This document shows, one piece after another, positions 2,395 to 6,639 of a stretch of DNA of 6,639 nucleotides; the stretch's first letter is position 1; each line of letters begins with the position of its first letter. This stretch comes from an archaeon (GTDB taxonomy: Archaea > Iainarchaeota > Iainarchaeia > Iainarchaeales > CSSED10-239), in NCBI GenBank assembly GCA_037147375.1, contig JBAWVI010000052.1, positions 1 to 6,639 of the forward strand, read 5' to 3'. A program made the position numbers and the translations under genes. The notes below the pieces were generated by a model that did not search any database, was not told where the DNA came from, and saw nothing but the letters and a program-made list of their open reading frames with translations.

Positions 2395-3153
2395 TTATTC
2401 TTTAATATAATTAAATTTATTATCTAGTTTATATCCATGCATTGGAGTGAAATAAATTTCAAACCCAATTTCAGGAAGTATTCTATACATATCTATGCTT
2501 GTTTTTATTCCATGTCCCATTTTTTTATTTGCTACTTTATCAATATATTGAACAATTGGATTCCAATTAAGTACACTTCTTGATTTACTATTTGGTTTTT
2601 CAAAACTAATTGATTTCATTACATTTTTCAGTTTTTCTTTATTTATTTTAAGAACAGTGTATCCACAATCTTTTCCATGTTCATCAACTACACCAATAAT
2701 ATCATAACTATGTTTAGTTTTTTTATAATGTCCTATTGTTTCAACAATATCAAGATGACTTGGAAGAGCAGTTAATACTTCTTTTCCAATTCCAAGTTTA
2801 TTTTCTTCAATTACATGTGTGTGTAATAAACTTGCTCTTGAGATAATTTCTTTTGCAACATCTTTAGGATAATGCTCAGAAAAAGTATGATATATAAATT
2901 CAATTCTTTTATGTGAGAAGTTAACATGCGTTTTTTCTCTACCAAAAGATATATCTCTTATTCCTTGTCCAGGAAAACTATATAATCCTACTTCTTTTTC
3001 TCCAAGCTTACTTACGTTTTTTAAATATAAAGAATATTTATTTTTACCAATAGTTGGATGCTTGAATATTTTTGGTTCTGCAATCTTAGTTTTAAAAGGT
3101 CTTTTAATTGGAGCCATATATCTATCTATACATAAATTAAGTTTAAAAAGCAT
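2395..3153 (-). CDS. Hypothetical protein, 252 aa, His-rich, no family recognised
   Basis: Long uninterrupted ORF with the same codon style as its neighbours. It is the first gene of the tightly spaced minus-strand block, with 21-nt and 16-nt gaps to PspC and NUDIX. An alternative start is the ATG at 3115-3117 (MAPIKRP...). No catalytic motif that I can name. Confidence 0.7.
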   Translation of the reverse strand: MLFKLNLCIDRYMAPIKRPFKTKIAEPKIFKHPTIGKNKYSLYLKNVSKLGEKEVGLYSFPGQGIRDISFGREKTHVNFSHKRIEFIYHTFSEHYPKDVAKEIISRASLLHTHVIEENKLGIGKEVLTALPSHLDIVETIGHYKKTKHSYDIIGVVDEHGKDCGYTVLKINKEKLKNVMKSISFEKPNSKSRSVLNWNPIVQYIDKVANKKMGHGIKTSIDMYRILPEIGFEIYFTPMHGYKLDNKFNYIKE

Positions 3154-3229
3154 GCTTTTTCTTAATAAATATATTTATATTAGGTTTTTCTTATGAAATA
3201 TATATAATATAGTAATTATGTGATTAATT
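3154..3229. promoter_or_regulatory. Divergent promoter region between the minus-strand block and the DHS cluster
   Basis: This is the only non-coding DNA between two divergently oriented first genes, so it must carry both promoters. It contains a 14-bp perfect palindrome, ATAAATATATTTAT (3165-3178), that resembles a symmetric TATA element. A second TATA-like run, AAATATATATAATA (3196-3209), is centred about 27 nt before the DHS ATG. GTGAT (3220-3224) lies 5 nt before that ATG. Confidence 0.5.
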
Positions 3230-4168
3230 ATGCAATATACTAAAGATATTTTATGGAAGAAAGGACTTACTGTTTCAGAGCTTGTTAATGCTTATTCTGG
3301 AGTTGGATTTCAATCTTATGAGCTTTATAGAGCTAGTGAGTTAATTAAAAAAATGAAAAAAGATGGAGCTAAAATCTTTCTTTCATTTACATCAAATATG
3401 GTAACCTCTGGGCTTCGTGGATTCTTTGCTCAATTGGTTTCACTTAAAATGTGTAACGTAATTGTTACAACTGTAGGTTCAATTGAAGAAGATATTATGA
3501 AAGCTGATGGAGAAAAGTTTATTTTAGGAACATTTTCAGCTAATGATGAAGAATTGTATGAGAAAGGACATAACAGAGTTGGAAATATATTTATTACAAA
3601 TGAAAGTTATTCTAATTTTGAAGGTAAGATGCAAGCACTTCTTGGATCTTTATATCAAGTTAAAAAAACTTGGCAGATTTCTGAAATGTTAAGAGAGATT
3701 GGACTTAAATTAAATGATCCAAATTCAATTCTTTTTCAAGCAGCAAAGAATAATGTTCCAATCTTCTGTCCAGCAATAACTGATGGTTCACTAGGATTCC
3801 ATCTTTATATGTTTAAGCAAGATCATCCTGATTTTAATGTAGATATTATTAGTGATTTTAAAGATATTATATTTTCTACAAGTCATGATGAGAAGAAAGG
3901 AATAATTGCTCTTGGTGGTGGACTTTCAAAGCATCATGTTATCTTAACAACTTTAATTAATGGAGGAGCAGATTATGCTCTTTACATGACAACAGCATCT
4001 CCTAAGTCTGGTTCTCTTTCAGGAGCAACAACAGATGAAGCAAAGTCTTGGGGTAAGATTAAAGATGATGCAGATGCAGTAACTGTTGTTGGAGACGTAA
4101 CAATAACCTTTCCAATAGCAATTACAAAAGCACTAGATGATTTAGTAAATGAAGGAATAATTAAATAA
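3230..4168 (+). CDS. dys: Deoxyhypusine synthase (or DHS-like homospermidine synthase), 312 aa
   Basis: DHS family blocks are present in order: FLSFTSNMVTSGLRG, IVTTVGSIEEDIMK, CPAITDGSLG, LGGGLSKHH, SGSLSGA and DEAKSWGKI. The Lys of SWGK (codon 4055-4057, K276) is at the position of the catalytic enzyme-imine lysine. Confidence 0.94.
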   Translation: MQYTKDILWKKGLTVSELVNAYSGVGFQSYELYRASELIKKMKKDGAKIFLSFTSNMVTSGLRGFFAQLVSLKMCNVIVTTVGSIEEDIMKADGEKFILGTFSANDEELYEKGHNRVGNIFITNESYSNFEGKMQALLGSLYQVKKTWQISEMLREIGLKLNDPNSILFQAAKNNVPIFCPAITDGSLGFHLYMFKQDHPDFNVDIISDFKDIIFSTSHDEKKGIIALGGGLSKHHVILTTLINGGADYALYMTTASPKSGSLSGATTDEAKSWGKIKDDADAVTVVGDVTITFPIAITKALDDLVNEGIIK

Positions 4169-4183
4169 TTTATTTGATTTTAT

Positions 4184-4837
4184 ATGAAACTTAAACCAAT
4201 AAATAAACTAAATAAACAGAAAAAAAGAATTAATGAAGTATTTGATTATCTTGACAAGCAATATAAAGAAAAAGAGGTAATTAAAAAAAAAGTACTACCT
4301 TCATTTATTGAGCACTCAAATAGATTAAAAATAATTAATAAATTAAAAGATAATCAATATGTTTTTGCAAGAAATAAAAAGAAAATAGAAATGTATTCAA
4401 ATAATTTTGTTTTTTCTGGAGAAATATATGAATTTAAAAATAATAATCCATATCTTCAGATTCTTGAAATTAAAAGATTACAAGGTAAGAAACTAACTGA
4501 TATTTTACAAATTAAAAATATGATTGAATATTTAAAAAAATATTGTAAAGAAAAAAGTATACCAGAAATACAAATGGGAACTTGGATGTTTGAATCACAT
4601 CCTGGATTTGCAGAACATCTTGGATTTGTCTCATCAAATCCACAAAAATTAAATGAATATAGAAAATATTTATTGGATAATGGAATAACTAAGATTACAT
4701 ATTTAGATAATAATGTAGTTCCAAGCACTATTCATTATCTTAAGAAAGATGCGAGTACAAATAAGCTAACTGAACAAAAAATTCCTTTTATTAAATTTGA
4801 AGTTGGATTTCCTCCATATGTTTGTAAAATAAAGTGA
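4184..4837 (+). CDS. Uncharacterised protein, paralogue A (217 aa); basic N-terminus, possible divergent GNAT-like fold
   Basis: Clear paralogue of the next ORF. Shared blocks are (Y/F)CKEK..PEI...TWMF...PGF.E.LGF...NP, KIT..D.N.VP..IHY.K, IKF, and the C-terminal P.YVCK.K. The order of motifs (R-x-x-G-x-K, helix, strand, then ..LGF) resembles GNAT motifs A and B, but this is by eye only. The start is 15 nt after the DHS stop. Confidence 0.8.
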   Translation: MKLKPINKLNKQKKRINEVFDYLDKQYKEKEVIKKKVLPSFIEHSNRLKIINKLKDNQYVFARNKKKIEMYSNNFVFSGEIYEFKNNNPYLQILEIKRLQGKKLTDILQIKNMIEYLKKYCKEKSIPEIQMGTWMFESHPGFAEHLGFVSSNPQKLNEYRKYLLDNGITKITYLDNNVVPSTIHYLKKDASTNKLTEQKIPFIKFEVGFPPYVCKIK

Positions 4838-4845
4838 TAACTATT

Positions 4846-5517
4846 ATGTTAAAATTACCTTTGAAATTAAGAAAATCAGTACCAACTGAAAGAAGATTAA
4901 AAGAAAAGTCTAAAAAACATAATCAAGTAACTGAAGTAATGGAGCATCTAACTAAAACTCATATTGGTAAAGAAAAGGTTAAGCATGTTACAATCCACGA
5001 GTTTGATGCATATTTTAATAAAGTTCCAAATTTAAAGGAACATGAGTACGTAGTTCAAAAAGGATATGATTCTACAATTAATGTATTTTCTAAAAATTAT
5101 GAAATTTATGGAAGTTATAAATCAAAGTATGCAACTATTGATTCAATTATAAGAAGAGGATCAAAAACAATTACTGATTTACATCAAATAAAAACAAATC
5201 TTGATTTACTTAAAACCTTTTGCAAAGAAAAACGTATGCCAGAAATTAGAATAAGCACTTGGATGTTTGATGCATTTCCAGGATTTGGAGAATATCTTGG
5301 ATTTAATCCAGTAAATCCTAGACTGGTTGAAATTTATAAAACTAGACTTAAAGAAAATAATATTCAAAAAATTACACATGTTGATTTAAATATAGTTCCT
5401 GCTGTCATTCATTATATAAAAATAAATAAAAATGGTAAAAAATCAGAAGCGGAAATGAGTCATATTAAATTTAAATTAATTACAGATTTGCCAGATTATG
5501 TTTGTAAAGTAAAATAA
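4846..5517 (+). CDS. Uncharacterised protein, paralogue B (223 aa from ATG 4846; 227 aa if GTG 4834 is used)
   Basis: By my by-eye count it is roughly 40% identical to paralogue A over the C-terminal ~115 residues. GTGAT (4834-4838) lies 7 nt upstream of the ATG at 4846. The GTG start in the ORF track would overlap the upstream stop as GTGA. Confidence 0.8.
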   Translation: MLKLPLKLRKSVPTERRLKEKSKKHNQVTEVMEHLTKTHIGKEKVKHVTIHEFDAYFNKVPNLKEHEYVVQKGYDSTINVFSKNYEIYGSYKSKYATIDSIIRRGSKTITDLHQIKTNLDLLKTFCKEKRMPEIRISTWMFDAFPGFGEYLGFNPVNPRLVEIYKTRLKENNIQKITHVDLNIVPAVIHYIKINKNGKKSEAEMSHIKFKLITDLPDYVCKVK

Positions 5518-5529
5518 AGTGATTAAACT

Positions 5530-6591
5530 ATGTTATCAAAAGCAAAATTTATATTTTCAAAATCAAAAGTAATATCTGAAGAAAATAAAATTGAGAAGTT
5601 ATCTGATATTATTGCATATAGTGTTAAATCTAACCCTTACATCACATCTATCCTTGAAGAAAACACAAGTTCAAACTTTTTGCTTCATCATATAAATGAA
5701 CTTATTTATGTTACTGATAAAAGTAAAGTTTGGTTTATGCTTCATTCTCCAGAAAAAGAAGAACTTGAGATTTTATTTAAAGATAAAATAAATAAATTTA
5801 TTGTAGATAACGAAAATGATTTAAATAGTTTGTTATATTTCTTGGACAACACAGCTCCAAAAGAAACAAAGATAACCCTTCTTTTAAGAATGAGACTTAA
5901 AGAATACACAATTCAGACTGGAAGATACTTTGTTTATGGATTTTATTCAAAAGAAGTAAATGAATTAATAAAAAAGCTAAAAGATAACAAACAAATAGAA
6001 GCACTTGGTGTGCACGTTCATAGAAAAACACAAAATCTTTCTGAATGGTCTTTAATTCAAGAATTATCTGATTCCTTAAGCAAAGAAACAATGGCTACAA
6101 TAAAATATTTAGATATTGGAGGAGGAGTTCCTGTTCCTTATAAGAACATAAGCGTCTCTGTAATTGAAAATGTGTATAAAGAAATAAAAGAATTAAAAAC
6201 TTTTGTAAATAAAAATAATTTAAAATTAATTATTGAACCTGGAAGAGCAATAGCTGCTCCATCTGGTCGCCTTGTAACTACAATTAAAAATATAGTAGAT
6301 AACACAGTTTTTGTAGATGCATCTCTTTTCAATAGTTCAATGGATACTCTTGTAACTCATATTAAGCTTCTTGTGGATGGAGAAATAGAAGATGAAACAG
6401 AAAAAGGAACACCATACATAATTAAAGGATTAACTCCAGCATCAGAGGATATATTTAGATATAGAGTATATTTTATAGAAGGAAAAGAACCAAAGATAGG
6501 AAATAAGTTAGTTTTCTTAAATGCAGGGGCGTACATCTATTACACAGATCTTTTCAATCTAGAAAGACCAGAAATTGAGTTTGAGGAATGA
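5530..6591 (+). CDS. PLP-dependent decarboxylase, fold-type III (Orn/Arg/Lys/DAP/carboxyspermidine decarboxylase superfamily), short and divergent (353 aa)
   Basis: Family blocks appear in canonical order. AYSVK33SNP carries the PLP Schiff-base lysine (codon 5626-5628). LLLRMRL follows, then GVHVH in the position of the H.H.GS block, then YLDIGGGVP (the phosphate-binding GGG), IIEPGRAIAAPSG, and finally NAGAYIYY..LFN near the C-terminus. The substrate cannot be assigned from the sequence. AGTGAT (5518-5523) lies 6 nt before the ATG. Confidence 0.85.
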   Translation: MLSKAKFIFSKSKVISEENKIEKLSDIIAYSVKSNPYITSILEENTSSNFLLHHINELIYVTDKSKVWFMLHSPEKEELEILFKDKINKFIVDNENDLNSLLYFLDNTAPKETKITLLLRMRLKEYTIQTGRYFVYGFYSKEVNELIKKLKDNKQIEALGVHVHRKTQNLSEWSLIQELSDSLSKETMATIKYLDIGGGVPVPYKNISVSVIENVYKEIKELKTFVNKNNLKLIIEPGRAIAAPSGRLVTTIKNIVDNTVFVDASLFNSSMDTLVTHIKLLVDGEIEDETEKGTPYIIKGLTPASEDIFRYRVYFIEGKEPKIGNKLVFLNAGAYIYYTDLFNLERPEIEFEE

Positions 6592-6599
6592 ATAATATT

Positions 6600-6639
6600 A
6601 TGCAAAAATTAAATTTTATGAATGTTCCAAAGGAATATA
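6600..6639 (+). CDS. Possible start of a further co-directional ORF (MQKLNFMNVPKEY...), truncated by the window end
   Basis: The ATG at 6600 is 8 nt after the decarboxylase stop, and the frame stays open to the window end. GAGG at 6583-6586 is 13 nt upstream. Only 13 codons are visible, so this call is weak. Confidence 0.3.
   Translation, partial: MQKLNFMNVPKEY

Follow-up and report, generated by a model that had tools for sequence, protein, structure and literature searches.

The bacterial SpeY pathway combines arginine decarboxylases (ADCs) of three folds with a specific bis-guanidino-homospermidine ureohydrolase (PMC13625781). Within the DPANN archaea, speDA-speY-speB clusters are known (PMC10407285). 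For Euryarchaeota, a clustering of the genes for deoxyhypusine synthase (DHS), agmatinase and aIF5A was described in 2016, along with a Haloferax model in which agmatine is used by DHS and an agmatinase-like enzyme completes the modification (PMC5178350). Phe204 and Leu286 of the agmatine-coupling CdmS, which correspond to Asp243 and Asp316 of human DHS, are reported as the sole residues of differing property between these two enzymes (PMC10981699). The DHS of S. solfataricus has a Thr at the Asp243 position and its donor is spermidine (PMC7773846). The locus described here bears on the question whether archaea possess an agmatine-dependent DHS. In our reading, to which we assign a probability of roughly 0.55, a compact operon-like cluster would supply an arginine-derived amine donor for aIF5A deoxyhypusination without spermidine in a DPANN (Iainarchaeia/Diapherotrites-like) host.

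The window, i.e. the whole analysed stretch of 6,639 nucleotides, contains five tightly packed plus-strand genes with the first start at position 3230. They encode a DHS (3230-4168, 312 aa), the paralogues A (4184-4837, 217 aa) and B (4846-5517, 223 aa from the ATG at 4846), a divergent PLP decarboxylase of the alanine racemase fold that is short with 353 aa (5530-6591) and, cut by the window, the first 13 codons of a ureohydrolase from the arginase/agmatinase family (6600-6639) that starts with the ATG at 6600 and runs past the window end. The spacers measure 15 nt between DHS and paralogue A, 8 nt between A and B, 12 nt between B and the decarboxylase and 8 nt ahead of the fifth gene. Paralogue B has an alternative GTG start at 4834 that would overlap paralogue A by 4 nt and yield a product of 227 aa; the N-terminus of its homologue P0124 reads MLKLPLKL. 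SD-like GTGAT motifs were found at 3220-3224 before DHS, at 4834-4838 (7 nt ahead of the ATG of paralogue B) and at 5519-5523, and an SD-like GAGG at 6583-6586 precedes the ureohydrolase start, while no such motif is present upstream of paralogue A. No hairpin resembling an intrinsic terminator came up in the scan, and a T run of at least five is absent from all four spacers, with 11 T among the 15 nt of the DHS-A spacer TTTATTTGATTTTAT. The open reading frames and spacers given in the sequence-only reading match exactly at 3230-6639, and its SD-like motifs before three downstream starts as well as the lack of hairpins and T-tracts between the genes were likewise recovered. The divergent intergenic region between ORF252 on the minus strand and DHS on the plus strand (3154-3229) is AT-rich with TATA-like stretches and presumably holds the promoter; the promoter scan was of the sigma-70 type and is uninformative for archaeal DNA. 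As genes are tightly packed genome-wide, with spacers of 4 and 21 nt between the minus-strand NUDIX, PspC and ORF252 genes, short spacers alone do not mark out the DHS cluster.

The first gene encodes a genuine DHS, as had been claimed for the head of a polyamine/aIF5A-modification module. It matched Pfam DS with 1.1e-100 and reached 328 bits against the NCBIfam archaeal DHS model (cut-off 350), compared to 134 against 500 bits for the SpeY model. Its closest PDB match was the DHS of P. horikoshii (1.3e-63). The catalytic Lys276 (codon 4055-4057) is conserved together with Trp274, Glu270, His235 and Lys234, and Ser55, Asn56, Glu87, His235 and His236 are DHS-like and not SpeY-like. The identity to SpeY is 27%, and SpeY is equally distant from every DHS group. 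The donor pocket carries Phe190 (codon 3797-3799) and Leu263 (codon 4016-4018), the equivalents of human Asp243 and Asp316. Thus, the enzyme is archaeal-DHS-like overall, yet has the CdmS/SpeY residues at the two substrate-pocket positions that set CdmS/SpeY apart from human DHS. Phe at the Asp243 position was found in all decarboxylase-linked DPANN DHS examined and also in bacterial SpeY-type proteins of Sphingomonas (L025) and Trichormus (L026); in Sphingomonas, a type III PLP enzyme is encoded upstream of the SpeY-type gene. This Phe is no proof of agmatine use by DHS, since the S. solfataricus enzyme uses spermidine with Thr at the same position and archaea generally have Leu where human DHS has Asp316 (PMC7773846 and our residue mapping).

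The decarboxylase showed the motifs of its superfamily, namely the PLP-binding Lys33 (codon 5626-5628), HxHRKTQN (162-169), GGG (197-199), EPGR (236-239) and NAGAY (331-335). In place of the canonical Cys stands Pro303 (codon 6436-6438), which is invariant across the family alignment and aligns to the Cys of DapDC, the nearest PDB match with only 2e-8. Given this replacement, not even plain decarboxylation can be taken for granted. The enzyme is only a distant relative of DapDC, CANSDC and ODC (E about 1e-8). Calling it atypical was justified, as its match to Pfam Orn_Arg_deC_N was only 9.6e-14 (about 1e-13) and its scores for lysA (76 bits), nspC (46) and speA (24) were far under all NCBIfam equivalog cut-offs. 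An ordinary LysA, the outcome named beforehand as speaking against the module, was rejected with 76 bits against a cut-off of 298. Among 780 relatives, the named ones belong to DPANN. The substrate is not readable from the sequence, but the protein is probably an arginine decarboxylase.

On longer copies of the contig (L002-L004), the fifth ORF belongs to Pfam Arginase. The full-length ureohydrolase has 306 aa (L003:4193-5113), and the junction into it is continuous in L003 and L004. The sequence-only reading had recognised none of the usual polyamine partners, among them a ureohydrolase. This holds true only inside the window and is an artefact of its edge, as the very next gene from the ATG at 6600 is of the agmatinase family. 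The metal-ligand motifs GSDHS, DTHPD and SIDVDVLDP are intact. With 130 bits on the NCBIfam agmatinase model TIGR01230 (cut-off 174) versus 76 bits for arginase, the enzyme seems more agmatinase-like than arginase-like, although it stays under the agmatinase equivalog cut-off.

The decarboxylase gene adjoins DHS or sits one gene away in eight of nine sampled lineages (the window, L006, L015, L008, L016, L024, L017 and L018), and a ureohydrolase follows within three genes downstream in seven of nine, including L010 with a different context. In L017 and L018, the DHS ORF overlaps that of the decarboxylase, which is 49-51% identical, and the flanks are unrelated. DHS and the decarboxylase, together with the ureohydrolase, form the core of the linkage, which is found again in remote DPANN archaea with otherwise different neighbourhoods. 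Of the proposed neighbourhood conservation, the DHS-decarboxylase part stood, while the paralogues were not kept throughout. Unrelated genes for a DEAD helicase and DNA-alkylation repair are also inserted in the operon of relatives. The aIF5A gene was in none of the loci examined.

These observations are consistent with the following route. The short PLP enzyme would convert L-arginine to agmatine, which would additionally feed tRNA-Ile agmatidine formation. Judging from context and pocket residues, DHS with NAD could oxidise the primary-amine end of agmatine and pass the 4-guanidinobutyl group via Lys276 to an acceptor amine. This acceptor would be the target lysine on aIF5A or another agmatine molecule, the latter giving bis-guanidino-homospermidine as with SpeY/CdmS. 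The ureohydrolase would finally remove urea, leading to deoxyhypusine on aIF5A or to homospermidine, which could act as aminobutyl donor. The paralogues would be a lineage-restricted insertion between DHS and the decarboxylase.

A different role for the two middle genes, in line with the sequence-only reading, was considered. As integral, undescribed module enzymes of the GNAT acetyltransferase type, they would modify the amine donor, be it agmatine, putrescine or homospermidine, or place an acetyl group on (deoxy)hypusine or a neighbouring aIF5A lysine, like eukaryotic SSAT1 and PCAF. BLASTP aligned the two proteins over 211 aa with 37% identity (E 4e-41), confirming their paralogy, and B is a tandem duplicate of A. 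Paralogue A had no match in Pfam, NCBIfam, PHROG, PADLOC or PDB sequences. Its AF2 model (pLDDT 82.7, pTM 0.78) gave Foldseek lists of nearly only GNAT acetyltransferases among the best matches (E 4e-4 to 4e-2), and a GNAT-like fold was recovered from two independent AF2 models. This lends the GNAT idea weak support at the level of predicted fold, but the TM values were only 0.3-0.5, the hhalign probability against GNATs was 0.24% with no Pfam GNAT match, and neither the Q/RxxGxG/A CoA-binding motif nor a catalytic residue is conserved in the family. Both copies are under purifying selection (dN/dS 0.145 for A and 0.21 for B, i.e. 0.15-0.21) and evolve at about six times the rate of DHS. The SD-like motifs and the spacers of 8-15 nt suggest co-expression. 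L006, L015, L008 and L016 have one copy, flanked by DHS and the decarboxylase, and paralogue identity falls to 28-38% in lineages with DHS 76-77% identical; this retained position is not independent evidence because the entire region is syntenic in these lineages. The gene is missing in L024, whose DHS is as distant as in lineages keeping it, and in L017 and L018, whose DHS and decarboxylase genes are immediate neighbours. Remote homologues have unrelated neighbourhoods beside TspO or PLD genes. The paralogues are therefore no conserved module component but a tiny orphan, fast-evolving and lineage-restricted family outside the core, and their duplication is limited to the window lineage, with a single copy in the nearest relatives. 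Any involvement of theirs in the pathway is doubtful; if there is one, acyl transfer to, or binding of, one of the pathway amines or aIF5A would be the likeliest role. The full acetyltransferase proposal is unlikely.

A canonical putrescine route is rather improbable. Here, the decarboxylase makes agmatine, an ordinary agmatinase yields putrescine, DHS works conventionally on scavenged spermidine or a putrescine-derived triamine, and the genes cluster as part of general polyamine housekeeping and of the agmatine supply for agmatidine. DPANN are episymbionts, hence spermidine scavenging; the top ureohydrolase model is agmatinase, DHS resembles archaeal DHS overall, a non-Asp residue at the Asp243 position fits spermidine use in Sulfolobus, and archaea require an ADC anyway for agmatidine (PMC8503589). 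However, this leaves the welding of DHS to the decarboxylase by overlapping ORFs in L017 and L018 and the SpeY-type Phe unexplained, and eukaryotic DHS yields no homospermidine without spermidine. Arginase followed by ornithine decarboxylase to putrescine is very unlikely: many decarboxylase family members bear the JGI label 'ornithine decarboxylase' and the ureohydrolase is about equally near plant arginases and agmatinases in the PDB, but the HMMs prefer agmatinase, SpeY-adjacent ODC homologues repeatedly turned out to be ADCs (PMC13625781), archaea need an ADC for agmatidine and no putrescine-using downstream enzyme is apparent.

Compared with known families, the decarboxylase shares the YSxKxN PLP-lysine, HxH, GGG, EPGR, GAY and PF02784 with fold-type III decarboxylases (DapDC/LysA, CANSDC/NspC, ODC, SpeA), but it is about 50-80 residues shorter, has the invariant Pro in place of the GxxCxxxD Cys and reaches only ~1e-8 to the nearest solved structures. 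The paralogues resemble the GNAT superfamily (SSAT1/SpeG, Naa50, KKT23, GCN5/PCAF) in predicted topology, in GNAT-dominated Foldseek lists and in an alpha3-beta5-alpha4 segment ending with 'LGF' similar to the GNAT motif end 'GF'. They differ by lacking the conserved Q/RxxGxG/A loop and the catalytic Tyr/Glu and by an extra N-terminal helix and C-terminal strands.

With the euryarchaeal aIF5A-agmatinase-DHS clustering (PMC5178350), the locus has in common the physical linkage of an archaeal DHS to an agmatinase-like gene and, with the Haloferax volcanii model, itself unproven, the proposed use of agmatine by DHS with a ureohydrolase finishing. It lacks an aIF5A gene, and its candidate ADC lies inside the cluster, whereas the Haloferax ADC is pyruvoyl-type and lies outside. 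The DPANN speDA-speY-speB and aguA-aguB clusters of Ca. Diapherotrites and Ca. Woesearchaeota (PMC10407285) belong to the same superphylum and likewise unite an ADC, a DHS homologue and an agmatine-type hydrolase. Their ADC is pyruvoyl-dependent, derived from AdoMetDC and biochemically verified, while the candidate here would be a non-orthologous replacement by a PLP enzyme of the alanine racemase fold. From the bacterial SpeY (CdmS) homospermidine cluster, the locus is set apart by an archaeal DHS orthologue that presumably must serve aIF5A too, by a separate DPANN-specific decarboxylase subfamily without the canonical Cys and by two inserted GNAT-like genes. Both have the same three enzyme types side by side (PMC13625781, PMC10981699), an ADC slot taken by non-orthologous decarboxylases, including ones of the alanine racemase fold directly beside the DHS homologue, for example in Sphingomonas (L025), and the Phe/Leu pocket pair that is common to the window DHS and CdmS, unlike human DHS. 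The module is thus not undescribed as had been proposed, its combination of arginine decarboxylase, DHS homologue and ureohydrolase being known from bacteria and, with a different ADC, from DPANN (PMC13625781, PMC10981699, PMC10407285); the cluster matches the ADC-SpeY-ureohydrolase logic of bacteria and also the euryarchaeal DHS/agmatinase/aIF5A clustering.

By its sequence, the protein encoded at 3230-4168 on the plus strand is unambiguously assigned as a deoxyhypusine synthase (DHS). It matched Pfam DS (PF01916) over its full length with 337 bits (cut-off 27, E 1e-100), and its best NCBIfam models were the archaeal DHS equivalogs, with scores slightly below the cut-offs (328 against 350 bits and 301.9 against 304.25 bits). 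The best PDB match was the DHS of Pyrococcus horikoshii (1e-63). Lys276, Trp274, Glu270, His235 and Lys234 aligned with the catalytic Lys329 of the human enzyme and with its Trp327, Glu323, His288 and Lys287, respectively. An aIF5A gene was not found in any locus examined.

The score on the equivalog NF002699 of SpeY, the bacterial DHS homologue that couples agmatines, was 134 bits (cut-off 500) and membership was not reached. The window DHS is 27-28% identical to the SpeY-type proteins of Sphingomonas and Trichormus. It was aligned with seven other DHS of DPANN archaea that are linked to the decarboxylase described below, human and Pyrococcus DHS (sequences taken from PDB alignments), two haloarchaeal plasmid paralogues and the two bacterial SpeY-type proteins. 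The latter are plasmid-derived, and a type III PLP enzyme is encoded directly upstream of the Sphingomonas copy. Where the human enzyme has Asp243, all eight decarboxylase-linked DPANN DHS and both SpeY-type proteins carry Phe, Pyrococcus DHS likewise carries Asp, and the haloarchaeal paralogues carry Asn. The position of human Asp316 is occupied by Leu, Met or Cys in every non-eukaryotic sequence aligned, Leu being common there among archaea. The window DHS has Phe190 and Leu263 instead of Asp243 and Asp316, which anchor spermidine in eukaryotes. Phe204/Leu286 of CdmS, the Thermus SpeY, and Asp243/Asp316 of human DHS are the only substrate-site residues that differ in their properties between these two enzymes (PMC10981699). 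SpeY also departs from DHS at the human positions 105, 106, 137, 288 and 289, and here the window enzyme has DHS-like residues. Because the Phe/Leu pair is present and the other SpeY-divergent positions are DHS-like, the alignment characterises the window enzyme as an archaeal DHS scaffold whose donor pocket is of the SpeY type. For agmatine use, Phe190 is suggestive and not decisive, since the DHS of Sulfolobus carries Thr at the 243 position and takes spermidine (PMC7773846), and SpeY is no closer to one DHS group than to another (27-29% identity to each). Given this equal distance, there is also no signal that the bacterial SpeY arose from the DPANN type.

The two haloarchaeal plasmid paralogues (3396-4370 in locus L027, H. 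volcanii pHV3, and 3399-4370 in locus L028, a Natrialba plasmid) adjoin an amino acid racemase or PNPOx-family gene, and the Asn at their Asp243 position represents a third pocket type.

The PLP-dependent enzyme at 5530-6591 (+) matched Pfam PF02784 (Orn_Arg_deC_N) with 51.8 bits (cut-off 23.4, E 1e-13). The sequence-only reading had considered that it might be an ordinary LysA within a lysine pathway. This, like an ordinary NspC, is ruled out by scores and gene context: it reached 76.1 bits on LysA TIGR01048 (cut-off 297.9), its scores are likewise far below the nspC and speA cut-offs, and no lysine-biosynthesis neighbours were present at any decarboxylase locus examined. The closest solved structures are DapDCs (E ~1e-8). 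The family comprises proteins of ~345 amino acids with 780 matches, and its members with names are from DPANN. In an alignment of 14 members, the PLP lysine Lys33 (YSxKxN; aligned with the lysine of the DapDC motif YAVKAN), HxHRKTQN (His162/His164), GGG (Gly197-199), EPGR (Glu236-Arg239) and NAGAY are invariant. Pro303 (codon 6436-6438) replaces the Cys of GxxCxxxD, the active-site Cys of this fold (Cys360 in ODC). It is aligned with the Cys of plant DapDC and is invariant in all 14 DPANN members, while the SpeY-linked Sphingomonas enzyme retains GPTCDDLD. The absence of the Cys is mechanistically odd, and the chemistry may not be plain decarboxylation. The decarboxylase had thus rightly been called atypical, in view of its low Pfam score and Pro303, and since an invariant Pro replaces the Cys across 14 members, this is a family trait. 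To our knowledge, the archaeal arginine decarboxylases (ADCs) characterised up to 2021 are restricted to the pyruvoyl type and one enzyme of the AAT fold. If it is an ADC, the present family would be an uncharacterised alanine-racemase-fold class for archaea.

Between these two genes lie paralogue A (4184-4837, +) and paralogue B (4846-5517, +, or with its start at GTG 4834), and a fifth plus-strand ORF starts at 6600 and continues past the window end. The window is an archaeal contig with 27% GC, and its genes have relatives annotated as DPANN (Ca. Diapherotrites, Ca. Ainarchaeum, Nanoarchaeota, Aenigmarchaeota and Micrarchaeia). The layout had been described accurately from the sequence: from DHS onward the spacers are 15, 8, 12 and 8 nt, GTGAT or GAGG precedes every ORF except paralogue A, and the spacers between the five ORFs contain no T run of at least 5. 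They also contain no hairpin terminator, in a bacterial-type promoter and terminator scan that is uninformative for an archaeon. The spacer between DHS and paralogue A has T at 11 of 15 nt. Minus-strand neighbours lie equally close, 4 and 21 nt apart; tight packing is a genome-wide property and not peculiar to the DHS cluster. Scanning for Rfam families and tRNAs gave no match in the window.

Longer contigs carrying the decarboxylase (L001-L005) were found by exact-match look-up. In L003 and L004, a gene for a 306-aa Arginase-family protein begins 8 nt past the decarboxylase stop, and Pfam Arginase (PF00491) was matched on L002-L004. The best NCBIfam model for this gene was agmatinase TIGR01230 with 130 bits (the cut-off of 174.3 was not reached), followed by arginase with 75.8. 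The translation contains GSDHS, DTHPD and SIDVDVLDP, the binuclear-metal ligand motifs (H, DxHxD, DxD) of the arginase fold. The sequence-only reading had stated that no ureohydrolase was recognisable. Since L003 and L004 carry this gene 8 nt past the decarboxylase, the fifth ORF is the ureohydrolase and its apparent absence was an artefact of the window edge. In L001 and L002, the calling of a single 192-aa gene and of a displaced arginase is due to masked N-runs and has no biological meaning. L002 and L003 are near-identical to the window, with 20 nucleotide differences, 12 of which are concentrated in a 38-nt patch at 4203-4240 (residues 7-19 of paralogue A; INKLNKQKKRINE versus IIKQNKQRNKIKE). 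This patch is a tract of local hypervariability or recombination. Downstream of the cluster (10835-13032 in L002, 8273-10470 in L003), genes for a radical SAM protein and a Memo-AMMECR1 fusion are followed by HIT/DcpS_C and a FEN1-like XPG nuclease.

For the conservation of the linkage, decarboxylase homologues of falling identity were traced onto long contigs and the window proteins were mapped by tblastn. At 80-86% decarboxylase identity (L006, L015), the order is DHS, one paralogue, decarboxylase and ureohydrolase. At 68-69% (L008, L016), it is the same except that unrelated genes (one or two, a DEAD-box helicase among them) precede the ureohydrolase. In Ca. Ainarchaeum (L024, 63%), DHS is directly followed by the decarboxylase with no paralogue between, and then by two unknown genes and the ureohydrolase. 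The decarboxylase of L010 (60%) is followed by a DNA-alkylation repair gene and the ureohydrolase, with no DHS near. At 49-51% (L017, L018), DHS overlaps the decarboxylase start and the flanks are wholly different, with a KH-domain protein upstream and EamA downstream. Both the DHS-decarboxylase and the decarboxylase-ureohydrolase pair were found outside the syntenic block, and this recurrence is real evidence for a functional coupling of the core pairs. Of the cluster proposed earlier, the DHS-decarboxylase pair is kept in distant relatives, while the recurrence of the paralogue is limited to the syntenic block. Clustering with an ADC and an agmatinase/iminohydrolase homologue, a feature of the SpeY class, was found at the window and in its relatives, the ADC role of the decarboxylase being predicted.

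Inserts lie between core genes or downstream of them, at 7154-8749 (L008), 7248-9677 (L016), 7053-7760 (L010), 7186-9043 (L024) and 8015-8803 (L006). They encode the DEAD-box helicase, the DNA-alkylation repair protein and several unknown ORFs. As unrelated genes are inserted among the core genes, adjacency alone is weak evidence of shared function in these DPANN relatives. Upstream, the order FtsZ, RNase_T, NUDIX and PspC is conserved in relatives. The gene at 1138-1749 encodes a stand-alone DEDDh (RNase_T/DnaQ-like) exonuclease that is kept in the syntenic relatives; its best NCBIfam models are exonuclease domains of the bacterial PolC and DinG types.

Paralogues A and B share 37-39% identity and belong to a very small family. 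Three proteins were found in a word-indexed set of 5.8 billion, whose profile search added no further members among the matches listed, and 14 when 1.84 billion representatives were searched exhaustively with a profile. Scans at the DNA level yielded one locus in GTDB species genomes and three in JGI metagenomes. Searches against Pfam, NCBIfam, PHROGs, PADLOC and PDB sequences gave no matches, except for a stray one of the family member P0132 to the PADLOC model RT-DUF3800 (E 4e-4), which was treated as noise. Structure prediction with AlphaFold2 improved from pLDDT 70.6 with 4 sequences to pLDDT 82.7 and pTM 0.78 with 15. Foldseek searches of PDB and BFVD with the model returned nearly exclusively GNAT acyltransferases (KKT23, NatD, Naa50, glyphosate acetyltransferase, AAC(6'), GCN5/PCAF and FemAB-like proteins) with marginal E values of 4e-4 to 4e-2 and TM scores of 0.3-0.5; the order beta1-alpha1-alpha2-beta2-4-alpha3-beta5-alpha4-beta6-7 served as criterion for the GNAT fold. 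The GNAT models of Pfam (Acetyltransf_*) did not match any of 16 family members even at E values up to 10, and hhalign against four GNATs gave a non-significant probability of 0.24%. Between beta4 and alpha3, the acetyl-CoA pyrophosphate loop Q/R-x-x-G-x-G/A is not conserved: residues 98-105 are RLQGKKLT in A and RRGSKTIT in B, and the family members P0127 and P0129-P0133 have no Gly there. Only Lys122, Ile129, Trp134, Phe136, Leu146-Gly147, Lys170 and Pro210 are invariant or nearly so, and the alignment contains no conserved catalytic candidate. The paralogues are described as a new orphan family with a predicted GNAT-like fold that fails GNAT membership by sequence criteria.

The evolution of this family is very fast. 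FtsZ is 97.5% identical between the window and L006, DHS 91%, the decarboxylase 86% and the ureohydrolase 82%, compared with 37-38% for the paralogue. DHS and paralogue are 93% and 62% identical between L006 and L015, and 94% and 57% between L008 and L016. Both copies are under purifying selection with dN/dS values of 0.145 and 0.21, versus 0.015 for DHS. The remote homologues P0128, P0129 and P0130 adjoin TspO, PLD or unknown genes and not DHS; P0128 of Ca. Ainarchaeum shares its contig with the DHS cluster but is encoded elsewhere on it. Because of the fast evolution, the unrelated contexts of remote members and the unrelated inserts in the operon of relatives, we consider a functional tie of the paralogues to the pathway possible and on balance improbable. 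Should it exist, they would most likely act by acylating or binding either one of the pathway amines or aIF5A. A function as defence, toxin-antitoxin or viral cargo genes found no support. The paralogues carry less weight than the core of DHS, decarboxylase and ureohydrolase.

Divergently from DHS, ORF252 (2395-3153, minus strand) encodes another orphan with no match in Pfam, NCBIfam, PHROGs and PADLOC. It is 37% identical between the window and L006 (FtsZ 97.5%), evolves as fast as the paralogues (dN/dS 0.18) and occurs in two tandem copies in L008 and L016. No relation to paralogues A and B was found.

An essential residue of a/eIF5A is hypusine or deoxyhypusine, whose textbook biosynthesis requires spermidine. 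How aIF5A is modified in archaea without spermidine of their own has been a standing question since the 2016 study on Haloferax. For the core cluster, an agmatine route in three steps is the best-supported mechanism. Arginine would be decarboxylated to agmatine, DHS would move the guanidinobutyl group onto the aIF5A lysine and/or a second agmatine, and the ureohydrolase would release urea to give deoxyhypusine or homospermidine. In the model put forward for Haloferax, which lacks spermidine, agmatine is the substrate of DHS and an agmatinase-like enzyme completes the modification; genes for DHS, agmatinase and aIF5A are clustered in Euryarchaeota (PMC5178350). Agmatine is also required for the agmatidine of archaeal tRNA-Ile (PMC8503589). 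This need would account for an ADC, but not for the fusion-like adjacency of the decarboxylase to DHS.

Taken together with the paralogues, the agmatine route leads to a wider reading, to which we assign a probability of roughly one in five. These DPANN would run a minimal, spermidine-free hypusination, in which a new Cys-less ADC of the alanine-racemase fold makes agmatine. Their sole DHS, with its Phe190 pocket, would be agmatine-dependent and guanidinobutylate aIF5A directly, and it may also make bis-guanidino-homospermidine. The linked ureohydrolase would act on the protein-bound or dimeric guanidino intermediate, and a new GNAT-fold family without CoA motif would have been recruited and duplicated in the window lineage to acylate or regulate the pathway amine or aIF5A. 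If true, this would be the archaeal agmatine-dependent DHS first proposed for Haloferax (PMC5178350) and asked for in the closing question of a study from September 2026, namely, whether archaea encode agmatine-dependent besides spermidine-dependent DHS (PMC13625781). The cluster and its recurrence across DPANN offer three small candidates for testing this, an archaeal DHS with SpeY/CdmS pocket and its linked decarboxylase and ureohydrolase. Nothing established is overturned by the DHS cluster.

In bacteria, SpeY (CdmS) converts two agmatines to bis-guanidino-homospermidine, from which a linked ureohydrolase forms homospermidine, and the agmatine is supplied by ADCs of three unrelated folds that are frequently encoded beside speY (PMC10981699; PMC13625781). 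The same group observed speDA-speY-speB clusters with a pyruvoyl ADC in DPANN MAGs (PMC10407285). The window DHS lies outside the SpeY equivalog, and its neighbour, the decarboxylase, is neither LysA nor NspC nor SpeA. The window cluster resembles the bacterial SpeY system in its logic of ADC, DHS homologue and ureohydrolase. It differs from that system in its archaeal host, in an archaeal-type DHS that presumably also serves aIF5A, and in its uncharacterised, Cys-less decarboxylase of the alanine-racemase fold.
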